A stretch of DNA of 64,000 nt from Trueperaceae bacterium. GTDB taxonomy: Bacteria; Deinococcota; Deinococci; Deinococcales; Trueperaceae. Below, piece after piece: positions 5,106 to 29,644 of this stretch; within the stretch, counting starts at the first letter, position 1, and each line of letters opens with the position of its first letter. The stretch is taken from NCBI GenBank assembly GCA_965213705.1, contig OZ243913.1:3936001-4000000 (forward strand). The letters run 5' to 3'. A program made the translations under genes and the position numbers. The notes beneath the pieces are model-generated. The model saw nothing but the letters and a program-made list of their open reading frames with translations, had not been told where the DNA came from and made no database searches.

Positions 5106-7006
5106 AAGGGTTGGGCTCGAGGGGAAACTCGACAAACTGCTTTAACAGACATGCGTAGTGACGGTTGTCGGGTCGTTTTTGTGCGTTTTTTGACCGTGGT
5201 AACCTCGGGGTAAAGTACGCTTGGGAACATCTTCGACTGAGAGGGCGAGCGTGACGACACAACCGCATACCGACCTGAAGTTCTTTACCAACGAACCCGA
5301 CGCCACCCTCTACCACCGCTTCGTTAAAACCCTCGAGTACGCTTCACACTTCGATGTTCTTGTAGGCTACTTCCGCACCAGCGGCTTCCACCGGCTTTAC
5401 CGGGCTTTGGAGCGCACCGAGAAGGTCAGGATTTTGGTCGGCTTGAGCGTAGACCGCAAAGCGTTCGAGATAATTGAACAGGTGCGCGACTCAAGCAGAA
5501 TCGACTTCGAGTCGCATGAACGCACCCGGCAAGTGTTTGTCCGCAACCTCACCACCGAGATGAGCGAGTCGGAGGACACGCCGGAGGTCGAAATCTCCGC
5601 CCGTAAGTTTATCGAGTATTTAGAGTCCGGCAAGCTCGAGCTGCGCGCCTACCCGAGCCGGAACCTGCACGCCAAGGTCTACATTTCGCGCTTTCCCGAG
5701 AATTTCATGGAGTTCGGTAAAGTTATCACCGGCTCGAGCAACTTCTCGGAATCCGGTCTGGTGGCACAGCGCGAGTTCAACGTCGAACTCAAAGACCGCC
5801 CCGACGTGGAGTTTGCCCTTGCAAAGTTCGAAGAACTGTGGGCCGAAGGGGTGGACATTTCTCAGGAGTACGTGGACACGCTGCTCACAAAGACCTGGCT
5901 CTCGGACCAAATCACGCCCTATCAGCTTTACCTCAAGTTTTTGTACGAGTATTTCAAAGAGGACATAAATATAGACGAGGATGTGGACCTCTTTTTGCCT
6001 GAGGGTTATATGGATTTGGCGTACCAGAAGCAGGCGGTGTTAGCAGCTAAGAAAATAATCGAGGCTTATGGTGGCGTGTTCATCGCGGACGTGGTTGGTC
6101 TCGGCAAGACGTTTATCGCGGCGCTGCTTCTGCAGCAACTGCCGGGCCGCAAGCTCGTCATTTGCCCGCCGGTTTTGGCCGACTATTGGAAAGAAACCAT
6201 GCACCAGTTTTACGTGCCGGGTGTCGAGGTGGAGTCTTTGGGCAAGCTCGAGCAAATCTTGGAGCGGGGCGTTGAAAAGTACAGCACGGTCGTCATCGAC
6301 GAGGCGCACCGTTTCCGCAACGAACTCACCCAGGGCTACGAGACGCTTCACAAGATTTGTCGGGGCAAAAAGGTCGTGCTGGTCTCGGCGACGCCCCTGA
6401 ACAACAAGCTCGGCGACATCTTGAGCCAGCTCAAACTGTTCCAACCCGGCAAACAGAGCGCCATCCCCGGCGTGCGCAACTTAGAAGCGTTTTTCAAAAC
6501 GTTGCAGAAAAAGCTCGACAGCGTGGACAAGGACGACCCTTCGTACTTAGAACTGGTCGAAGAAACCTCCAAAGAAGTGCGGGATAAAGTCTTGAAACAC
6601 GTCATGGTACGGCGGACGCGCACCGAAATCAAAAAGTATTTCAGCGACGACTTAGAAAAGCAGGGGCTGCGCTTTCCCGAGCTAGCCAGTCCAGAGCGCA
6701 TCATTTACGAGTTCGACGGCAACATCGAAGAGGTGTTCAACACGACCATCGGTCTATTAAAAAGCTTCACTTACGCCCGCTACACCCCCCTCCTCTACCT
6801 GAAAAAAGGGCTGGGCGAGTTCGAGTTGCAGTCCCAGCGCAACATCGGCGGTTTTATGAAGGGCTTATTGGTGAAGCGTTTGGAGAGCAGCTTTTACGCC
6901 TTCAAGCAAACCGTAGACCGCTTCATCACCTCCTACCAGAACTTTCTTCACATGCTGGAGGGAGGAACCGTCTACATCAGCAAAAAGGTCGGGTAGTGGC
7001 CCACCA

Positions 7007-7423
7007 TCAACTGACAGCAGCACGCTCAAGATTGTAGCGGACCAAGAACAGATGCAAGCAAATGAGGTGCATGTGTTCGGACTTGGAGAAGGATAAGGTC
7101 TTTCTGACAAAGCGCGCTAGGCGTTGGCGGATAGTATTGTTAAAGCGCTCGACGTGTGCTGTAAGCCCTGAGTCTTTACCAACAGCTTGATGCTGTTCAT
7201 CGGGAACGACGGCCTGATAAGCTTCCCAGAAGTCACTAAACACCGTGCCTTGTTTATAAGCATCTGGGATGTTACGCCAAAGTTTTTGACAAGTAGCAAT
7301 GCCACGTCCACCTACAACACAAGCGACCACCTGGCGTGTCTGCTTACAAAGCGCTATCCAGGCCCACCGTTTGTTACGTCTACATCGAACAAATGACCAC
7401 ATCTCGTCGAGTTCGAGTTGCAC
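7007..7423 (-). CDS. insB: IS1 InsB DDE transposase domain (probably fused to InsA by slippage)
   Basis: ELDEMWSFV, SDFWEAY, HVERFNNTIRQRLARFVRKTLSFSKS. Confidence 0.9.
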   Translation of the reverse strand: MQLELDEMWSFVRCRRNKRWAWIALCKQTRQVVACVVGGRGIATCQKLWRNIPDAYKQGTVFSDFWEAYQAVVPDEQHQAVGKDSGLTAHVERFNNTIRQRLARFVRKTLSFSKSEHMHLICLHLFLVRYNLERAAVS

Positions 7424-7457
7424 CGCTTCAGGGTTCTCGGGCGTAACCAGTGTGGCG

Positions 7458-7736
7458 CTAAGCGGCGGTGTCGTCGCGGCTTTTTTTGAGCCATTTCGCT
7501 ATTGTGGTGCGGGACACGCCGAATGTTCTGGTCAGCCCACGCATACTAGAGCGCTCCTGATACGACTTCAGTATCTCATCTTTCTTCGCTTCGCTGTACC
7601 CTTTAGTGCTCGCGTTCTCGCGACTGGACTTGCCGCACGCTCGACACAGGTACTTTTGCTTGCCGTTTGGTGCATGACCGTTCTTGACAAGCTCTTCGCT
7701 CTCGCAGTGGCAGCAACGTACAACTTTGGTGACCAT
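7458..7736 (-). CDS. insA: IS1 InsA (zinc ribbon + HTH)
   Basis: CCHCES..VKNG...GKQKYLCRAC, SMRGLTRTFGVSRTTIAKWLKK. Confidence 0.9.
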   Translation of the reverse strand: MVTKVVRCCHCESEELVKNGHAPNGKQKYLCRACGKSSRENASTKGYSEAKKDEILKSYQERSSMRGLTRTFGVSRTTIAKWLKKSRDDTAA

Positions 7737-10700
7737 TCCTTAGCTTATCAGTCTTTGCTAAACCACTACCAAAGGTCGATGTCTACGACCTGCTGGACGG
7801 GGACGACGAAGAGAGGCTGTTGAGTTTGGTCGAGCAGGACAAGGTACAAAAGTACGCCGCTACCGAGTTCAAGTCCGACTTTGCGACGAAGTTGCGCAGC
7901 GACCTCGCGCTGCTTCAAACCGTGCAAAAGATGTGGCGGCGCATAGAAGACGACCCCAAGTTGGGGGCCTTCGAGCGGGAGCTTACGAAAAACCCGCTGC
8001 TCGAGGACAACAAGGTCATCGTGTTCAGCGAGTCGAAGGAAACGGCTCGCTATCTCTACGAACAGCTTGAAGACCGCTTTCCGAACCAGGTCTGCTTTTA
8101 TGCCAGCGGGGGCGGCGTCTACGGCGGGCAAACTTACAGCGTCGGCGCGGCCAGAGAGCTTATCCAGGCGAACTACAACCCGAACCACAGCAACCCGCGA
8201 GACGATGTCCGCATTCTGATTACCACCGACGTGCTGGCCGAAGGCATCAACCTCCACCGCTCGAACACCGTCGTCAACTACGACCTGCCCTGGAACCCGA
8301 CCCGCGTGCTGCAACGTGTCGGGCGCGTGAACCGCGTCGGCACCGAGCACAAAACCGTCTACGTGTTCAACTTTTTCCCGACCTCGCAGAGTGACGAGCA
8401 CTTAGGGTTAGAGGGCAACATCAAAGCCAAGCTGCAAGCGTTTCACGACACGTTGGGCGAGGACGCCAAGTACCTCTCCAGCGACGAAGAGGTCTCCACC
8501 CACGAGCTTTTCGGCGAGAAGTACGCCGACACGCTTTACCGCAAGCTCACCGACAAGGACGCGCTCGAGGCCGAGGAAGACGAGGCGACCGAACTCAAGT
8601 ACCTCAAACTCATCCGCGAGGTCCGGGACGAACAGCCGGACCTGTTCGAAACCGTCAAACGCCTGCCCAAAAAGGCGCGGAGCGGCAAGACGTGGCCGCA
8701 GGCGGAAAACGGGCAAGACCACCTGCTGACCTTTTTTCGCAAGGGCAAGCTCAAAAAGTTCGTGCTCGGGCGCGGCCAAGGCGAGCCGGTTGAACTCACC
8801 TTTTTGGACGCCGCCAGAATCGTCGCTTGCCGCCCCGAGACCGAGCGGTGCCAGGTGCCGAGTCCCTACTACAGTCTGCTCACGCGCAACAAAGAAGCGT
8901 TCAAACACGTCACCAGCGACGACCCGGTAGACCTGAGCGGCGGGGGCGGCGTGACCAACGAAAAACACATCTTGCAAGTGCTCAAATCCAGGGAGTTTCG
9001 GCACTTCAAGGGCTTTACCGACGAAGACGAACATTTTCTCAAGGCGGTACGCGAGGCGCTCGAGGCCGGATTGGTCGCCAAAAACACCGCCAAGCGCGTC
9101 AAGACCGACCTCAAAAACAGCTTGCAACCGCTCAAAGTCCTGGCCGTGTTGCGCAGAAACTTAGACGTTGCCCAGTTTCGGCAAACGGATGCAGAAGAGC
9201 ACCTGGACCCGCGTGAAGTGATTTTGTCCGAATACCTGGTTAGCAGTGAACCCGTAGGGAGTGAACCAGCATGAGACCCCAAGAAGCCGGCACCTTAGTC
9301 GAGGCCACCTTCAACCACAGCTATGACGAAGGGCGCTTCCGGCTGTTCGCCCGCAACTTGTTCGGCGACTTGGAGGAGAAAAGCGACCGCTGGGCCGGGA
9401 GCTATGTGCCCGAAGCTTTCCGGGGCTTTGTCAGCCAGTACGGGCGCCTGGGCAAGTTCGAGGACGCCGAGGGCTACAGCGTGGACGTGCTGGCCGTGAA
9501 GCTCAAAAGCGCCGCGCAGTTGGAACGCGCCCGTAGCGCCCAGCGCAACTTCATTGCCCGGTACTTAAACGGCGGGCGCGGCGACGTGCTCAGGGACGCC
9601 GCCCTGGTCGCGTTTTACGCCGACGACGACCCCGACTGGCGCTTCTCGCTCGTGCGGATGGACTACAGCCTCGACTTAGAGCACAACAAGCTGCGCAGAG
9701 ACCTCACCCCGGCGCGGCGCTACTCGTTTCTGGTCGGCCCGAGCGAGCGCACCCACACCGCCCAAAAGCAACTTTCCAAAGTCCTGACGGGCGACGCCCT
9801 CCCAACCCTGACCGCCCTCGAGCAAGCCTTCAACATCGAAACCGTCACCAAAGAGTTTTTCGAGAAGTACAAGGAGTTGTTCTTAAACCTCAAAGAGGCG
9901 CTGGACGCGCTGGTAGACGAGAACACGCGCGTCGCGCAAGAGTTCACGGCCAAGGACATCGACACCGCCAACTTCTCAAAACGCCTGCTCGGACAAATCG
10001 TGTTCCTGTACTTTTTGCAGAAAAAGGGCTGGCTGGGCGTGCAGCGTGGTGCGGCCTGGGTCGGCGGTCCCAAAGACTTTTTGCAGCGCCTCTTCGCCGG
10101 TGACTACGTCCGGTACGGCAACTTTTTCAACGACATTTTAGAACCCCTCTTTTACGAAGCCCTGGCCGTGGAGCGCAGCGAGCACTACTATTCCCGCTTC
10201 GACTGCGCCATCCCCTTTTTGAACGGCGGTCTGTTCGAACCCATTGGCGGCTACGACTGGGTGAACGTGGACATCCCGCTAAAGAACGAATTATTTGAGG
10301 ACATCTTCGGCGTGTTCGACCTCTACAACTTCACCGTGCGCGAGGACGAACCGCTCGACAAAGAGGTCGCGGTAGACCCCGAGATGCTGGGCAAGGTGTT
10401 CGAGAACCTGCTGGAAGTCACCGACCGCAAGAGCAGGGGAGCCTTTTACACGCCCCGCGAAATCGTCCACTACATGTGCCGGGAGAGTTTAATCAACTAC
10501 CTGGACACCGCGCTCAACACCGTCAAGCGCCCCTTGGCAAAGCAAGCCGCCAGCCAAGACGCCCTGTTCGGCAAGCCCCAGGCCCGACAAGAACCGTTGT
10601 ATGAAGAGGTCTACGAGGCGCGTGTGCCCAGAGAGGACATAGAAGCGTTCATCCGCTTAGGCGACGTGGCCCAGGAGCACGACGCCACCACGGTTCAAAA

Positions 10701-10888
10701 GGGCAAAGAGACCGAAGCCTACAGCTTCAAAACGCCCGAGAGCATCCGCGGGAGTGCCGGGGCCATCGACGACGCGCTTGCCAGCATTAAAATCTGCGAC
10801 CCGGCCATCGGTTCGGGCGCGTTCCCGGTCGGGATGATGAACGAAATCGTGCGGACACGTTCGGCGCTGACGCCGTACTTAGCTGCGG

Positions 10889-10985
10889 CCCCCCTTAACA
10901 AGGGGGGTTGGGGAGATTTAGCCCAGGCCACTCGAGAAGCAGCCGACAGAAGCAAATCCCCCCTTAGTCCCCCCTTGTTAAGGGG
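10889..10985. repeat. REP-like inverted doublet inside the methyltransferase coding sequence
   Basis: CCCCTTAACAAGGGGGG...GATTT and inverted AAATC...CCCCCCTTGTTAAGGGG. Confidence 0.8.
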
Positions 10986-12070
10986 CGAAGGGAACGGACG
11001 AACCCCCTACGACTTCAAGCGCCACGCGATTCAAGAAAGCATTTACGGCGTGGACATAGACGCGAGCGCGGTGGACATCGCCAAGCTGAGGCTGTGGTTG
11101 TCGCTGGTGGTGGACGAGGACGACTTCGGGACGATTAAGCCGCTGCCGAACTTAGGTTACAAAATCGTCGAAGGCAACTCGGTGTTGAGTTTGGAAGGAG
11201 CCATCACCGACGGGCGTGAAATGCGTGACCTCGAGACCCTCAAACGCGCCTACTTCGGCGAGACCCGCGCCGGCAAAAAGCAAGAACTGAACCGGCGCAT
11301 CGACCAGACCCTCACCAACATCTTCCGGTCGGCGCAAGACTTCGGCTCGAGGGCGAACTTCGACTTTCGCATCCACTTCAGCGAGGTGTTTCACCAGCAG
11401 GGCGGCTTCGACGTGGTGATAGGCAACCCCCCCTACGTGCGCCAAGAAGCGCTGGGCGACTTGAAAGACCTGCTCAAAAAGTACGAGGCGTACCACGGCA
11501 GCGCCGACCTGTTCGTGTACTTTATCGAACTGGGCGTCAAGCTGCTCAAAAAGGGCGGCACGTTTGCCTACATCGTGGCGAACAAGTGGATGCGGGCGAA
11601 CTACGGCAAACCTCTTAGAGCGTGGCTCAAAAAGCAGCAACTTTTAACCATCATCGACTACGGCGACCTGCCCGTGTTCGAGACCGCCACCACCTACCCG
11701 TGCATTTTGTTCGTCGGCAAAGACAAGCCGAACGAAGAGGTGCAAGTGGTCAAGATGGAAGAACTCGCCTTCGAGCACTTGAGTCGCTATGTTGACGAAC
11801 GCAGCTACGCACAGACGCAGAAAGACCTCGAGGACGGCGGTTGGTCACTGGCAAACAGAGACGCGCAGAAGGTACTCGACAAAATAAGCAAGGTCGGCGT
11901 GCCCTTAGAGCAGTATATAGACGGAAAAATCTACCGTGGCGTTCTAACCGGACTCAACGAAGCCTTTGTGATTGACGAAGCAACCAAAAATAAGCTGATA
12001 GCCGAAGACCCCAAAAGCGCCGAAGTCATTAAACCGTTTTTAGCGGGGCGAGACATCAAAAAATTTTCAC

Positions 12071-12110
12071 CGCCGAAAAGCAAAAATTAGATAATTTTTG
12101 CTTTTCGGCG
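12071..12110. repeat. Perfect 19-bp inverted repeat with 2-nt loop, containing the premature stop
   Basis: CGCCGAAAAGCAAAAATTA-GA-TAATTTTTGCTTTTCGGCG. Confidence 0.95.
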
Positions 12111-12743
12111 AAATTTTGACATTGAGGAGTATCCTGCAATTAAAAAACACTTGAGCCAGTTTAAGGACAGACTCACACCCAAACCGAAAGGTTGGACGGG
12201 TGCAGACTGGCAGGGGCGGAAGCCAGGGTCTTATAAGTGGTATGAAATTCAAGACGCAGTTGATTACTATGAAGAGTTTGAAAAGCCTAAAATTATGTAT
12301 CTTGTATTTCAGGTAAGACCCACCTTTACCTTTGACTCGAGCGGAACTTACGGAAATAATGCTATCTGGATTATTCCAAAGGACGATAAATTTTTGCTGG
12401 GAGTTCTCAATTCAAAAATAGGTTGGTTCCTTATTTCTAATTACTGTACTCAAATCCAGAACGGGTATCAGCTTATCTTCAAATACCTCGGTCGAATCCC
12501 CATCCGCACCATCGACCCCTCCAACCCCTCGGACAAGCAAAAACACGATTCTATGGTGGAACGTGTCGAAACCATGCTCGCGCTGCACGAACAAAAGGGG
12601 GCGGCGACGGAGCAGGGCGAGCGCGCCCGCTTGGAGCGGGAGATTGCGGCGACGGATGAACAAATCGACACGCTTGTCTACGAGCTTTACGACCTGACGG
12701 ATGAGGAGATTGCTATGGTCGAAGAAGCGGTGGCGGGGTAGCG

Positions 12744-12992
12744 GTGAACTACGACATCGGCTTTAAACCTCGAGCGGTCAAAGACTTAAAAGCGCTAGAC
12801 CAGCGCGAAAGCGCGCGCATATCTGAAAAAATAGAGGCTATGCGGGATAACCTGACGGGAGACGTAAAAAAACTTACCGACTTTACGCCGGAGTACCGCC
12901 TACGTGTCGGCAACTACCGCGTCCTCTTTACCCTCGAAGATAATAAGGTTGTCGTTTACCGCGTTCGTCACCGCAAAGACGTGTATAGATAA
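12744..12992 (+). CDS. RelE/ParE-family toxin
   Basis: 82 aa; DVKKL...YRLRVGNYRVLF...RVRHRKDVYR. Confidence 0.9.
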   Translation: MNYDIGFKPRAVKDLKALDQRESARISEKIEAMRDNLTGDVKKLTDFTPEYRLRVGNYRVLFTLEDNKVVVYRVRHRKDVYR

Positions 12993-13006
12993 GAAGGGAT
13001 TGTTCC

Positions 13007-13210
13007 GTGGCCGATTTAGCTTTGCATCCAGAGTTCTTAGTCAAAAATGGCAAGAGAGAATTTGTCGTACTGCCTTACGAAGAGTTTGAGGCTTTGCAAG
13101 AAGTTCTTGCCGACGCGCAAGACCTCATCGACTTGCGAGCAGCCAAAGAAGAGGAAGGTGACGCCCCTACGCTGTCGCTGGAGGAAGTCAAGCGGCAGTT
13201 GGGCTTCTAG
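13007..13210 (+). CDS. Antitoxin (Phd/YefM-like)
   Basis: KNGKREFVVLPYEEFEALQE..D..DL; acidic; directly after toxin. Confidence 0.8.
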   Translation: MADLALHPEFLVKNGKREFVVLPYEEFEALQEVLADAQDLIDLRAAKEEEGDAPTLSLEEVKRQLGF

Positions 13211-13257
13211 TTTGAAGGAGCAACCTGTGGGATTTGGACCGTCAAAGGGAGTATCGC

Positions 13258-13509
13258 ATGAGCGTTGAAGAAGCTGTTGTGGAAAAACTGCGAATGTTGC
13301 CCCCTGAGCGGCGGCGGGAGGTGCTCGAGTTTGCGGAATTTTTGGAGAGCAAGTCACATTTGCCGATAGACGAGTTCGAGCGGCTGCAAACTTTTATCGA
13401 GGACGCTCAGGACTTGTTCTTGCTTAGACAAGCAAAGGCCGAGGACGACGGCGAAAGAATTTCTCTGGCTGAGGTAGAGGCGCGTTTGGGCTTGACTGAA
13501 CAGCCGTAA
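13258..13509 (+). CDS. Second, chimeric antitoxin-like protein (DUF2281-like N-terminus)
   Basis: LPPERRREVLEFAEFL then LPIDEFERLQ..IEDAQDL..LRQAKAE...SLAEVEARLG, similar to the upstream antitoxin C-terminus. Confidence 0.7.
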   Translation: MSVEEAVVEKLRMLPPERRREVLEFAEFLESKSHLPIDEFERLQTFIEDAQDLFLLRQAKAEDDGERISLAEVEARLGLTEQP

Positions 13510-13519
13510 GCTATGACGC

Positions 13520-13579
13520 GAACTTTACGACCTGACGGACGAGGAAATTGAGATTCTGGAAGAATCTATCTCTAAATAG
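13520..13579 (+). repeat. Orphan copy 2 of the methyltransferase 3' tail
   Basis: GAACTTTACGACCTGACGGACGAGGAAATTG...TAG = ELYDLTDEEIEILEESISK*. Confidence 0.9.
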
Positions 13580-13582
13580 GGA

Positions 13583-15478
13583 CTATTCTGCTTCCGGCGC
13601 TGTGTAAGCCTGAGCCTGGTGAGATGGACTTTCAGGATAACGCATGAGCAAACGACCGTCAGTCACCAACCTACTGATGTACTGCCGAATGGTTTGCGGC
13701 TTACGGTTTAGCAGCTTTGCGATTTCACGAATGCTGAGGTGTTTGCCTCGGGCGGCTTCGATAATTGCTAGTTCCAACTGTTCCTTCGGCATCCTTTTGT
13801 ATTCACGCGCCCTCTGAATCAGCGGGTGGGCCTGTTGATTTTGAGGATTAGCCTGTTGACCTGCCTGTTGATTTTGAGGGCTAGCCTGTTGATTTTGAAG
13901 ATTAGCCTGTTGACCTCGCGTGAAGAGATTGGGTCTGTTGTCCAGCACATCGACTAGCTGATAAGTTGTGCCGCTGGCTACACCGCTGGAAACCACGAAA
14001 CCGTTTTCCTTTAGCCCACGCAGCATTTTGGTGATGTCGGCAGGGTGCTGGTCGCTCATTTCTTGCAAGCGTTTGTTACTCACCGAGCCTTCGCGCAAGG
14101 CGGTAATCAATGCCAACCTTTGGTGTTGGTCCAAAGCGGTGTAACGGTTACCGAATTTTGCCGCCAATATTTCGGTGAACTCTTCGGGTACGAGGCTTTG
14201 CATGGTCAGCTCGAGGGTGACTTGTTCGGGCTGGGTGTTTTCGCTCAAAACGGGGTCTCGCCAATCCTGAGAACGCCAGGCCCGCAGAATCTTGGGGATA
14301 CCCGTGCCCGCACGGTCAGCAGCACCAATCAGGTAAAAAATTTGGAAGAGCGCGGGATTGCGCTGATCGCTTTGTCCCCCTTGCTCGTTCAAAATCACAC
14401 TTTTGGGCAGCCGCAAGCGACCGGGGTTGACAAAGACGAACTTGTGCGCGTACTTGTGAATAAGAATACCTGTAGTAGAGCTGTGGTCGGCATGAACGAG
14501 GGCATTCACCAGGGCCTCGCGCAAGGCGCTGTGAATAGGTGTGTTGTCCACCCTACGAGCGCCTTCTAGCTGAAAAGGAACTTTTAGGTCGGCCGTCAAC
14601 TTGGCATAAACACGCCGAAAGAAGTCGTACAAGTTGCCCGACCATGCGCCGTCGTTGATAACCCGGTCGGTCCAGCGTTGCTCGGGGTCTAGGTTACGCT
14701 CTTGATAGTCGAGCTGAAAGTGGGGCAACTTCTCCTTGAGCGCCAAATGATTCCCAAAGGTGAGGAGGCCTGCCAGTGTCAGCCCCTCTCGTCCAGTCTG
14801 CCGGTCGCGCCGCCACGCCCCTATAGACGTAAGAAAGTCCAAATCATCCTGGGTAGCCCTGTTACCGCCAGAACGTTCTAAACGGAACTCTTGACGGTAG
14901 GCGTCTAAGGATTCCCTACTCAGGTCACTCAGCGTGTAGTGCTCGAGGATGTCGTTGTCTTTGGTATCGTCACTCGCCTCGGCAAACATCCGGCGTACTG
15001 TCGCCTCACTGCAAAGGTGGTCGCCGTCGTTGAAGCGCTGGTAAGTACCACGCATAGGATTGTCGTTGATGTAGACAGGGCGGTCTTTGCGGGTAGCAGG
15101 TGGCACGTGAAGGATGAGCAGGTGGGCATCCTCACAAACGAGATGTTGGACATGCTGATTAGTTAGGATATTTTTGTTGACCTTGCTCTTATTGTTGACT
15201 GTGTTCCAGAAGTCTTTTTCTAGGTTTGTCACGCTCTGAAGACCTATGGGCTGCAACGTGCCGTCGTCAAGTTCCTTAGCACCGAGCACTATCTTACCGC
15301 CTTGGGTGTTGGAGAACGAACTGTAACTTTCCCAAATACTCTTGGGAAGTTTGCCCTCACCCTCTCTACCTCGCGCATCTTTTACTTCACACTGATACGA
15401 CTCCGTCAGGGTGTTCAGCTCATCACAATCTATCTGTTCCGGGTTGTTTCGTCTTTGAAATGTAGGTGCTGCACCCAT
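13583..15478 (-). CDS. Schlafen/AlbA_2 + RecG-C-like ATP-binding domain + HTH protein
   Basis: ECK-like EVKDA...WESYSSFSNTQGGKIVLG, ALREALVNALVHAD, NPGRL, RNPAL, DRAGTGI; C-terminal HTH; 21-bp QQANPQN repeats. Confidence 0.85.
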   Translation of the reverse strand: MGAAPTFQRRNNPEQIDCDELNTLTESYQCEVKDARGREGEGKLPKSIWESYSSFSNTQGGKIVLGAKELDDGTLQPIGLQSVTNLEKDFWNTVNNKSKVNKNILTNQHVQHLVCEDAHLLILHVPPATRKDRPVYINDNPMRGTYQRFNDGDHLCSEATVRRMFAEASDDTKDNDILEHYTLSDLSRESLDAYRQEFRLERSGGNRATQDDLDFLTSIGAWRRDRQTGREGLTLAGLLTFGNHLALKEKLPHFQLDYQERNLDPEQRWTDRVINDGAWSGNLYDFFRRVYAKLTADLKVPFQLEGARRVDNTPIHSALREALVNALVHADHSSTTGILIHKYAHKFVFVNPGRLRLPKSVILNEQGGQSDQRNPALFQIFYLIGAADRAGTGIPKILRAWRSQDWRDPVLSENTQPEQVTLELTMQSLVPEEFTEILAAKFGNRYTALDQHQRLALITALREGSVSNKRLQEMSDQHPADITKMLRGLKENGFVVSSGVASGTTYQLVDVLDNRPNLFTRGQQANLQNQQASPQNQQAGQQANPQNQQAHPLIQRAREYKRMPKEQLELAIIEAARGKHLSIREIAKLLNRKPQTIRQYISRLVTDGRLLMRYPESPSHQAQAYTAPEAE

Positions 15479-15772
15479 CAGAAAATTTTAGCATCTCCCG
15501 ATCCAGGGCATTTACCTGAAACGTAGCAACGCTCGAGCGGATGAAAACGGCTTGAGTGTTGTTACGGGCGTTGAAAAAACCCTGTCGAGGGCGCAACGAG
15601 AGGAGCGCGCTGGTATCCCGGTGACTCTAAGGGAATTGAATCTTAGTTCTAAAATGTAATCGGATGCAATCCAGATGCAATTAAATTGAAAAATTAAGTC
15701 CAGCACGGCAAAAGATACAAATCCACCGAAGCTCAAACATGCAATAAATAGCCAGTAACAGAGCATCTGTCC

Positions 15773-15996
15773 CTTACACATTGAGCCAACCCTGGCGACC
15801 GAGCCACCTATGGGATGGTTAGAATGGTTAACACATGCTGGACCCACAACGACAAAAAGCTACAGAGCAGGGCGAGCGCGCTCGCTTAGAGCGCGAGATT
15901 GCGGCGACGGACGCTGCTATCGACGCGCTTGTTTATGAGCTTTACGACCTGACGGACGAGGAGATTGCTATTGTCGAAAATTCTACAGCGCGGTAA
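15773..15996 (+). pseudogene. Orphan copy 3 of the methyltransferase 3' end (degenerate)
   Basis: Frameshifted IEPxNPGDRATY..MVRMVNT then MLDPQRQKATEQGERARLEREIAATDAAIDALVYELYDLTDEEIAIVENSTAR*, homologous to about 12505-12741; left edge approximate. Confidence 0.88.
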
Positions 15997-16031
15997 GGTA
16001 AGGGCAACATGAAGCATTTTTGTGATATAGC

Positions 16032-16060
16032 TTGCCAAAATATTCTATATATGTTATATT
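16032..16060 (+). promoter_or_regulatory. Sigma70-type promoter of the TAC operon with an overlapping AT-rich imperfect palindrome
   Basis: TTGCCA-17 bp-TATATT. Confidence 0.65.
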
Positions 16061-16076
16061 ATGGTTGGTACGATTA

Positions 16077-16463
16077 GTGAAGGAGTCTTGGCGTGTTGCT
16101 TACTTCAAAGATGAGAAAGGTAGTGTTCCCGTCAAGGAATTTTTCGAGCTACCGAGCGTTATAGGTATTACTGAAGGTGAGAAGAAAGTGTTTAAACAGC
16201 GTTTAAAGTGGGTACGGCAAAGAGGGTTAGGACTTGCTGAAAGGCGGGGTGATGTTTTGGAACATCTCAAGAACGAAGGAAACCTTTATTCGCTTCGCAT
16301 TCCCAGCAAACCGAACAACCCTCGCGTTCTACTCTGCTCTATTCCAGGCAGTAATCAATTCGCTTTGCTGCACGCCTTTAAAGAGAAAAACTCGCGCGAT
16401 TACAAGAGAGCAATCAGTGTAGCCAAAGGACGACGAGACCGACTTCTCGCAACTGTAAAGTGA
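16077..16463 (+). CDS. HigB/RelE-like toxin (Gp49-like)
   Basis: WRVAYFKDEKGSVPVKEF...LYSLR...RVL...LLHAFKEK; GTG 16077 preferred because 16032 lies in the promoter. Confidence 0.8.
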   Translation: MKESWRVAYFKDEKGSVPVKEFFELPSVIGITEGEKKVFKQRLKWVRQRGLGLAERRGDVLEHLKNEGNLYSLRIPSKPNNPRVLLCSIPGSNQFALLHAFKEKNSRDYKRAISVAKGRRDRLLATVK

Positions 16464-16480
16464 AGACTGGAGCTGTACTC

Positions 16481-17014
16481 ATGGCAAAAGATGAAACTAC
16501 AAACAATACCTACTTGGACTCTGAAACGGACGTGTTGGAGCATTTGGGCAGCCTGATTCCTGATACGCCCGAAATGCGCCGCGTGGGTAAGCAGGAGTGG
16601 TTCCGCTTGCTGTTGACGGACGCCATGATAGAAGCGCGCAAGCGTGCCGGTTTGACGCAGAAAGAAGTCGCTAAAGAACTCGGCGCAACCCAGAGCTGGG
16701 TGTCCAAGCTCGAGAGCGCCAACCACGACCACGGGGTCGAGTCGGTGGTGTCTCACCTGGACGCAGTCGGGGCTGAACTGCTGATGGCGGTCAAGGTCGG
16801 CGATGATTTGATTCAGGTCGAAACCAGTGAAGAAGATGTCCTGGTGAACATTCCTGTCTGCTACCAGGATGAGGCTTTAGAAGCCGGTATGACCTTGCGA
16901 GATTTCATCTGCTCACGGCTCGAGGAATACCGTTGGAGAGATGGTGTGAGCGTTTTCGACGTGCCGGAGGGCTTCGCTCGGTTTGATACTGAAGAGGGCT
17001 ATACCCTCCGCTGA
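16481..17014 (+). CDS. XRE-HTH antitoxin (HigA-like) with C-terminal extension
   Basis: ARKRAGLTQKEVAKELGATQSWVSKLES; long acidic/aromatic tail. Confidence 0.82.
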   Translation: MAKDETTNNTYLDSETDVLEHLGSLIPDTPEMRRVGKQEWFRLLLTDAMIEARKRAGLTQKEVAKELGATQSWVSKLESANHDHGVESVVSHLDAVGAELLMAVKVGDDLIQVETSEEDVLVNIPVCYQDEALEAGMTLRDFICSRLEEYRWRDGVSVFDVPEGFARFDTEEGYTLR

Positions 17015-17517
17015 TGCCCACAGCAAAACCGAAACCTAAAACAGTACAAGTCACGCCCGAAGCCTACAACACCTTTTTGCAAGGGCTCGAGCTGAAACGG
17101 GTGCGACTGGCTTCCGCCAAGGTGAAGACCGAAGTAGACCATCCTGCACCCTCCGAAACTGAAATTCGCGCCGAGTACGAACGGGATTTTGAAAATGATG
17201 AGGGTGGTTTTGAAGCTTTTGCCAGCTATAGGCTCGAGTTTGTGAAAATAGAAACCGGTGAGGTTCAAGGTGTTGTCGAAGCGACCTTCGGGTTACAATT
17301 CGACAGTCCCGAGCCAATGCGTGAAGATATTTTTGAAATCTTCGGTGAGTTGAACTTGAAAGTCAACTCCTGGCCTTATGCCAGAGAGTACGTGCAAACC
17401 AACATGGGGCGGATGGATTGGCCGGGCTTCACGCTACCGCTTATGAAACCCTCGCTACCCAAACCTGAGCCTGCAGCAGTCGCCAAGCCAAAACGAAAGA
17501 GCAAGAAGAAAGTTTGA
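17014..17517 (+). CDS. SecB-like chaperone
   Basis: WPYAREYVQTNMGRMDWPGFTLP resembles the SecB C-terminal PY.RE...R...P..LP motif; translationally coupled (TGATG). Confidence 0.8.
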   Translation: MPTAKPKPKTVQVTPEAYNTFLQGLELKRVRLASAKVKTEVDHPAPSETEIRAEYERDFENDEGGFEAFASYRLEFVKIETGEVQGVVEATFGLQFDSPEPMREDIFEIFGELNLKVNSWPYAREYVQTNMGRMDWPGFTLPLMKPSLPKPEPAAVAKPKRKSKKKV

Positions 17518-28934: not shown

Positions 28935-29345
28935 TTGAAGGTTCGTCCCGGCTTGGGTGAAATGCTACCGACACAGGTCAAGCCCTATGACATTCAAGTG
29001 CTTTACCCACAGATGCTAGAGCGCGGCCTAAACCCTAAGACCGTCCGGCACTGTCAGAACATCATTCACAACGCCTTTGAGCAGGCTGTCCGCCGGCAGC
29101 TTGCCAGCAACCCGGCCCAGCATGTCGACTTGCCAAAACAGCATCACGCCGTTGTCCTGAGACCCGCTCCGCGTGGCCGAATGAGCACGGCCTGACGTTT
29201 GCCAATGAGAACGGTGAAGCGCTTGAAATGAACAACTTTCGCAACCGGAACTTTGGAAACGCCCAAGAACGGGCGGGGCTGTCCGGCTTTGACCTCTACA
29301 GCTTGCGACACACCCACGCGACCCTGCTACTTTTGGCCGCCCTTT
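28935..29345 (+). pseudogene. Tyrosine recombinase (phage integrase) remnant with internal deletion
   Basis: VKPYDIQ..Y..M...GLNPKTVRH...AFEQAV....NPA (core-binding region) and FRNRNF...AGL...DLYSLRHTHATLLL (catalytic box) with the middle missing. Confidence 0.75.
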
Positions 29346-29644
29346 CACGGTTGCGGGTGCGGTCGGTGTGTTTGACACTCAAACTGTCCTCACCAGCGAC
29401 AAGAGCAAAGTACGGGCTCTTCTGTGCGCCATCAACCAAACATGAGCAGCGAGAGGGGACAAACATGTCTGAATCACAGGGTTGTGTTCGGCAAGAAAAC
29501 TGTTCCCGCTCGTTTGGTGCTGTAGCTAACCTCGTTAAACGGCCGTCGATACACCTGGTGTAGTTCATGCCAGCGCTGGAAACGTTGTACTATCGAGCTA
29601 CTTGTACCACGTTTCCACGTTTCACTACGCGTTTCGAGGTTGCC

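Follow-up and report, generated by a model that had tools for sequence, protein, structure and literature searches.

Among the described ways in which gene arrays grow without an integrase or mobile element, two come close to the locus reported here, which lies in a 64,000-nucleotide stretch of a Trueperaceae genome (the window; GCA_965213705.1, contig OZ243913.1, positions 3,936,001 to 4,000,000 of the forward strand) and in which the conserved 3′ tail of a Type IIG-like methyltransferase gene recurs downstream, each copy followed by different toxin–antitoxin (TA) or other defence-type genes. In long target duplication, as the accessible text of Furuta, Abe and Kobayashi (2010, PMC2853133) presents it, insertion leaves variable-length long direct repeats, which often lie over a start or stop codon and thereby keep the target gene whole, and no mobile element takes part; the inserts are restriction–modification (RM) genes, the events are single and, in one H. 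pylori case, the target is a Type IIG gene. The same source also reports allelic target recognition domain (TRD) substitution in Type IIG genes. For rhs, the available portion of Jackson et al. (2009, PMC2935791) describes variable-length direct repeats of a conserved segment, downstream of the full gene in a GC-poor tract and closest to the gene of their own locus; each orphan joins a conserved core to a variable tip and is hence a store of alternative specificities, and integrase-free homologous recombination through circles is proposed.

The window shares with both systems the variable-length direct repeats and, as in rhs and contact-dependent inhibition loci, these are copies of a conserved gene segment downstream of the full gene. 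It departs from long target duplication in that the methylase tail is a recurrent target and the inserts, TA and Schlafen-type genes rather than paired R and M genes, are mostly small TA modules, serially stacked and reshuffled across the family. Compared with rhs the geometry is reversed: the conserved part follows the variable domain, the orphans carry no TRD in place of the alternative variable domain expected on each, and it is the neighbouring cargo that moves. Three further systems resemble the locus in part, as far as their accessible texts go. Vibrio cholerae type VI secretion system (T6SS) immunity arrays (Kirchberger et al. 2017, PMC5361080) also grow without an integrase, through illegitimate junctions that homologous recombination spreads, but they follow an effector–immunity logic in which the unit that stays behind is the cognate immunity gene and no part of the gene upstream. 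The pneumococcal tvr (SpnIV) locus (Kwun et al. 2018, PMC6265443) is likewise an RM locus with direct repeats, TA homologues and circle excision and reintegration; there a dedicated locus recombinase shuffles Type I hsdS genes, whereas the window yielded no match to the recombinase families PF00589 and PF00239 (PF07508 was not searched for), no spare TRDs and no fixed crossover site of the integron or tvr kind. In domain movement (DoMo; Furuta et al. 2011, PMC3077401) conserved sequences around the TRD are the crossover points, but TRDs move within and between genes and the available text describes no downstream cargo array; programmed inversions of Type II RM genes, as outlined in the accessible part of PMC9881135, are another, inversion-based route. 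A preliminary description of this DNA had considered the arrangement undescribed. The first two systems are precedents, and a literature search with most subscription papers outside its reach turned up nothing on orphan Type IIG tails that stand in series with TA cargo.

The pattern of tail repeats is real and general, and it is a new form of recombination-built arrays already known. In the reading we favour and consider probable, the last 60–230 bases of the methylase gene are a RecA-type crossover joint at which modules of tail plus cargo are added and removed without an integrase. The host's own homologous recombination would act on the conserved tail: recombination between two copies would excise a circle of tail plus cargo, and a circle (by single crossover) or a linear donor (by double crossover) meeting a similar tail would produce tail–cargo–tail, keeping the methylase stop codon and moving older cargo downstream. 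This follows the circle model put forward for rhs. Because the conserved tail comes after the variable recognition domain, such modules would carry no specificity information, and the orphans would therefore be joints and no silent TRD reservoir. Exchange of the TRD, and even replacement of the whole gene, would use the same tail as right-hand border, apparently as a separate event, and the first cargo–tail junction would probably have come from a rare homology-anchored illegitimate event.

The repeated unit is the last 20 codons of the methylase: in each of three same-strand copies ELYDLTDEEI is followed by nine diverged residues (AMVEEAVAG, EILEESISK and AIVENSTAR) and a stop at codon 20. 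Copy 1, the end of the methylase gene, spans 12505–12741 (core from 12682), orphan copy 2 spans 13520–13579 (core from its first base) and orphan copy 3 spans 15790–15996 (core from 15937), all on the forward strand. In the window's own 4.25-Mb genome (G000, where it occupies C1:3936001-4000000; other G numbers denote compared genomes), a scan of both strands with the 32-mer core returned these three copies at 0, 3 and 4 mismatches, nothing at 5–8 mismatches and two unrelated matches at 9. A tail hidden Markov model (HMM) trained on other genomes found in G000 only the three window copies and the end of a second Type IIG gene. Chance is ruled out for the three copies, whose positions and shared peptide agree with the preliminary description and which are not scattered through the genome.

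The copies differ in length and in kinship. Copy 3 matches copy 1 at 82% across 137 nt (15859–15995), which makes 78 nt upstream of its core firm. Over a further ~90 nt it encodes, in another frame, NPGDRATYGMVRMVNT, resembling the resident NPSDKQKHDSMVERVET; this frameshifted extension is plausible as protein and weak as DNA, its score being reached by 76 of 2000 shuffles, so that the upstream relic of about 160 bp proposed earlier stands in its near part and is weaker in its far part. Copy 2 has ~46 nt in common with copy 1, at 83%. The tail nearest to copy 3 is the resident main tail (rank 1 of 167), and copies 1 and 3 have a helix sequence in common (27 of 30 nt) for which other compared tails reach at most 22. 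Tentatively, a fourth, degenerate tail end (IWTVKGSIA and stop) may lie at 13208–13262 (+), its stop overlapping the next ATG. It aligns with the main tail end of G035 (VKIVEGSVS and stop) at a score reached by 10 of 2000 shuffles, an optimistic figure because the test takes in shared start context.

The closest homologous loci are in Trueperaceae. For the family, 101 genomes out of a larger group were searched; the relatives compared are different species, and kin among them are not independent. In G004, an orthologous helicase and methylase (63% aa) carry another TRD, the main tail is accompanied by a short orphan fused to the window's relE block (77% nt), and a second orphan stands behind the antitoxin that precedes window copy 2, with a BrnT-like pair next. 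In G000 itself the second Type IIG gene (L021, G000:C1:2741300-2746950) is intact and belongs to another subfamily; there the relE block lies directly behind the main tail and is followed by further TA genes and tRNA-Arg. Tail ends of the AVAG-stop type precede the same relE in the window, in this second own locus and in the G004 orphan. The 73-aa gene overlapped by the G004 main tail, which may be HicB (a label unconfirmed by Pfam), is likewise overlapped by a degenerate orphan at the second own locus; xVEGSxS-stop ends overlap DUF2281 both at the G035 main tail and in a G004 remnant. On the upstream side, the same antitoxin precedes an orphan tail in the window, in G004 and at the second own locus (there a degenerate one, its score reached by 4 of 2000 shuffles), and the gene that follows the tail is a different one in each of the three. 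The 3′ ends of tails go with the downstream gene and their 5′ edges with the upstream gene, which fits crossing over inside the tail. The G004 remnants keep the last 6–11 codons only, the core being absent.

Congeneric G035, G094 and G079 share one chromosomal site and, in keeping with the variable arrangement proposed earlier, do not have one identical layout. G035 carries the gene, a single tail and then a RelE/helix-turn-helix (HTH) pair; G094 carries G035's gene, its TRD being different and its cargo only partly the same. In G079 the methylase has been lost to an AAA ATPase, with a 74-aa N-terminal remnant left; a PIN-type TA pair lies between two tail copies identical at 221 of 222 nt, and downstream of the second tail stands G035 cargo (93% over 985 nt). 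With direct repeats of more than 30 bp in G079 and an empty site in G035, these two genomes form one filled/empty pair. At the window's site the methylase locus is absent from G001, whose right flank is not syntenic, and for that reason no empty allele is available. A tRNA next to the left flanking gene in G001 suggested a tRNA-anchored island. This reading was rejected: the tRNA in the window (30775) is not the one in G001, and no duplicate of a tRNA end was found.

In the model of the preliminary description, DNA that arrives with tail, cargo and a new TRD replaces the old 3′ end after recombination in the methylase core, making every cargo gain a specificity switch; the route would be illegitimate recombination facilitated by homology, or else a double crossover that ends in the donor's orphan tail. 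Identity to G004 and G035 does drop from 60–96% to 30–44% at residues 951–1100, TRD and cargo both differ between G035 and G094 at one site, and the G079 gene is replaced by the foreign ATPase up to the tail's 5′ edge; such a mechanism is also proposed, in the accessible text of PMC5361080, for the Vibrio T6SS arrays. However, if the right junction were illegitimate and random, pieces of TRD should frequently be left stranded, and homology to a library of 128 TRD regions was found in 0 of 27 main-to-orphan gaps (the blast search covered gaps of 90 nt or more, and rows L234 and L051 are poorly aligned). Leave-one-out sensitivity of the library was 113 of 128 for 120-nt remnants, and decayed remnants can escape it, because it missed the broken G018 gene. 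The double-crossover version predicts no TRD remnant and is compatible with crossover in the tail. Further against displacement, copies 1 and 3 share a helix sequence unseen in other compared tails, copy 3 is closest to the resident tail and the G079 duplication is confined to the tail. A new TRD at every step is thus not borne out, the closeness of copies 1 and 3 argues here against obligatory coupling of TRD and cargo, and we regard displacement as an unlikely source of the array. From the sequence comparisons, TRD exchange clearly occurs; it can co-transfer cargo if the right crossover lands in a donor's orphan, and a coupling of cargo gain to specificity switching is possible.

Beyond these genomes, surveys of wider scope found the same arrangement. 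A genome survey began with 80 loci, of which 4 lacked a usable gene end, 8 lacked a tail motif and 2 offered less than 1 kb downstream; among the 66 left, same-strand downstream matches of at least 10 bits occurred in 6 (G004 among them), against 0 of 60 upstream regions, and opposite-strand matches in 2 genome loci are parts of long convergent frames. In a metagenome survey of 80 loci chosen by tail likeness, one or two downstream orphan tails were present in 15 of the 69 loci with at least 500 nt downstream. These orphans share the strand of the gene, and minus-strand matches numbered 0 in 88 loci. Homologous loci with orphan tails and variable cargo, as the preliminary description anticipated, therefore exist in genomes and metagenomes alike. 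Orphans are mostly 66–89% identical to their main tail, over homology lengths from tens of bases to 228 nt and with many 5′ edges. Ranked against 167 tails, the own main tail came first for 13 of 25 orphans, took second place for 4 and a lower one for 8; its frequent first and second places are as expected if identity limits exchange. Crossover by the host's own recombination is also in keeping with the two RecA genes of G000 and with the lack of PF00589 and PF00239 matches in the window. Tail conservation follows codons, and orphans decay. Viral contigs contained 8 tail-bearing loci, 7 of them long-frame ends and the other a short tail; all lacked a second tail, and there was no sign of phage as carriers.

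The same measurements bear on the alternative named in the preliminary description, the tail as an att-like crossover site. In this rival reading a site-specific recombinase whose gene lies elsewhere in the genome would act on the tail, giving an integron-like cassette array. A core of ~30 nt is kept in all window copies, several long orphans have nearly the same 5′ border, and G000 has 6 tyrosine and 3 serine recombinase matches over the cut-off. Yet the homology of orphans measures anything between tens of bases and 228 nt, their 5′ edges are many and varied, the G004 remnants of 6–11 codons lack the core, conservation is codon-wise, orphans decay, and no tyrosine or serine recombinase was matched in the window, in line with the preliminary description's locus without an integrase. 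A fixed crossover site does not fit this variation, and we hold a recombinase-driven cassette array to be improbable. Some 12 kb past the array, near tRNA-Met, a short open reading frame (ORF; 29228–29563) has a stretch that presumably resembles the C-terminal motif of tyrosine recombinases; it has no PF00589 match.

The stop of a tail overlaps or adjoins the start of the cargo behind it (ATGA/GTGA) in G004, G035, G008, G073 and the window, and the smallest remnants are exactly the last codons. Both facts would suit orphans that are inert scars of one-off illegitimate insertions, retained only for the translational context (ribosome binding and start) that they lend the following gene, and never reused. 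Against this, the same modules appear in different orders with breakpoints within tails, and the near-exact 222-nt duplication in G079 far exceeds what a start context needs; we give this explanation little credence. Tails are also able to persist apart from the methylase gene. In G083, G008 (twice) and G071, tails with no methylase match in 14–20 kb have small TA-type genes downstream, and two stand behind other defence-type genes (GmrSD, one G008 case); these solo tails are best read as leftovers of gene replacement. Two further loci show other combinations. At L150 (G073:C8), an orthologous helicase–methylase locus whose TRD is split by an insertion sequence (IS), TRD and tail are of a different type and are followed by TA genes that it shares with G008 and G018. 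At L245:1479-3141 (G117), the same relE–antitoxin pair overlaps the stop of a 401-aa ORF that may be a Type I hsdS, and other RM gene ends may therefore dock the same cargo.

Several observations weigh against crossover in the tail. No tail-to-tail joint appeared among the 15 of 57 joints listed, and neither a circle nor a deletion nor a within-species variant was seen in assembled contigs, which are blind to rare variants; contigs spanning 13106–16899 match the window and may derive from its source sample. The ~46 nt at 83% that copy 2 has in common with copy 1 is short for RecA, for 8 of 25 orphans a foreign tail is clearly a closer match than the main tail of the same locus, and cargo without a detectable tail occurs in G001, G117 and G018. 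Homologous recombination by itself is unable to create the first cargo–tail junction. Five long orphans (both in G079, one each in G008 and G071, and window copy 3) begin no more than a few tens of bases from where TRD and tail meet, and these shared 5′ starts hint at a preferred junction that the model leaves unexplained. RecA dependence, circles, the order of events and the making of the first junction are inferred, whereas the repeats with their orientation and variable length, the lack of TRD remnants, the reordering of shared modules and the one filled/empty pair are plain in the loci themselves.

The gene that provides the tail (9271–12741, +; 1156 codons) encodes a Type IIG-like (Eco57I/TaqI_C) adenine methyltransferase, with Pfam matches to Eco57I, N6_Mtase and TaqI_C and a PADLOC match to REase_MTase_IIG (E 7.7e-255). 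It thereby joins an N6-adenine methyltransferase and a C-terminal TaqI_C-type recognition domain in one polypeptide, as Type IIG enzymes do. No nuclease domain was matched by Pfam in the chain, and a partner may provide the nuclease: a PLD–SNF2 helicase gene whose 5′ part (5221–6996, +; Pfam PLDc_2 and SNF2-rel_dom) and 3′ part (7820–9274, +; Pfam Helicase_C) are continuous in G004 and G035. In the window the helicase gene is cut by an IS1-family element (InsA/InsB; 6992–7772, −; Pfam DDE_Tnp_IS1 and Zn_ribbon_InsA), which has 8 further near-identical copies in G000 (blastn 99.6–100%; 9 in all, one across contig ends). Because this element splits the helicase and an in-frame TAG interrupts the methylase at codon 940, the genes are not intact and expressible as those of a working Type IIG system are, and the helicase–methylase system looks inactive. 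The variable TRD segment (12055–12495, +, limits approximate) is AT-rich, as first described: GC is 0.35–0.47 over 11971–12570 against 0.52–0.70 in the rest of the gene (150-nt bins). The DNA match to G004 ends at 12059 and restarts at 12497, that to G035 ends at 12053 and restarts at 12476. Upstream, a short GC-rich insert in the methylase (~10880–10990; residues ~538–575) has weak matches elsewhere in G000 and in relatives and very high read depth, and is probably a small repeated element.

The premature stop, which the preliminary description had missed together with the split helicase, lies in a perfect inverted repeat near the left TRD border (12071–12110; 19-bp arms, 2-nt loop; TAG at 12088–12090). 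Flipping this interval changes two bases and opens the methylase frame; close homologues have Y/H-L-I at the stop site, the commonest pair being YL (6 of 34 aligned homologues). Run X1 gave a single contig across the palindrome in the stop form. In run X2, from the same sample, a contig begins exactly at 12081, with 2 letters that differ at positions not located, and in a k=31 graph simulation breaks arise at 12060, 12071, 12081 and 12092 only when both loop orientations are present. Runs X3 and X4 hold next to nothing of the locus. Since the X2 break fits the simulation with both orientations, stop and open forms are likely both present in the reads, a library artefact at the hairpin being the alternative. 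Template switching that inverts a spacer is a described mutation type, according to the accessible part of PMC8604942. Perfect inverted repeats are numerous in G000: ~90 have arms that reach 15 bp or more, and in many the loop measures 0–2 nt. The idea of the palindrome as a unique special element was rejected on that count.

The cargo after copy 1 begins with a RelE/ParE-family toxin (12744–12992, +; Pfam ParE_toxin, E 6e-11), 77–78% identical in amino acids to homologues behind AVAG-stop tails in G004 and the second own locus, followed by a Phd/RelB-like antitoxin (13007–13210, +), 93% identical to its homologues there. Next is a chimeric antitoxin (13258–13509, +) with a DUF2281 N terminus and a RelB-like C terminus, likely a deletion product fusing two genes that are separate in G004. 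Convergent with copy 2, on the opposite strand, lies a Schlafen AlbA_2/RecG-C/HTH protein gene (13583–15478, −; Pfam SLFN_AlbA_2, HATPase_c_4 and HTH), within which short tandem-like repeats (13802–13909) encode a Q/N-rich linker. Copy 3 is followed by a Gp49/RelE-type toxin (16032–16463, +; Pfam Gp49, E 4.6e-5), an HTH antitoxin (16460–17014, +; Pfam HTH_31 and HTH_3) and a probable SecB-like chaperone (17014–17517, +). For the last, Pfam and NCBIfam returned no SecB match, the PDB SecB-like protein Rv1957 matched at E=0.1, and the Atlas value was 0.95 with SecB on 12% of members; the earlier labels thus hold for RelE/ParE, the antitoxins, Schlafen/RecG-C, toxin and HTH through Pfam, and weakly for SecB. 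The three genes stand together in G001 (51–57% aa) with their order kept. Promoter and terminator counts were the same as in shuffles.

A wider version of the tail crossover, which we think unlikely as a whole, would make this an integrase-free system at work across the family: tail-capped TA and defence modules would circulate as circles and dock at compatible tails, the tail would supply the incoming gene's translational start and outlast the methylase as an attachment point, and loop flipping of the 40-bp palindrome would switch the methylase on and off in the population. Because the individual mechanisms are known, the locus is a new use of known parts and not a new machine. It touches an open question, how TA and defence genes build up beside restriction systems without mobile elements; TA islets without mobility genes are noted in a 2026 study (PMC13617665, accessible text). 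A short, conserved and searchable gene end at the joints offers a testable route for that build-up and a guilt-by-association handle for new defence genes.

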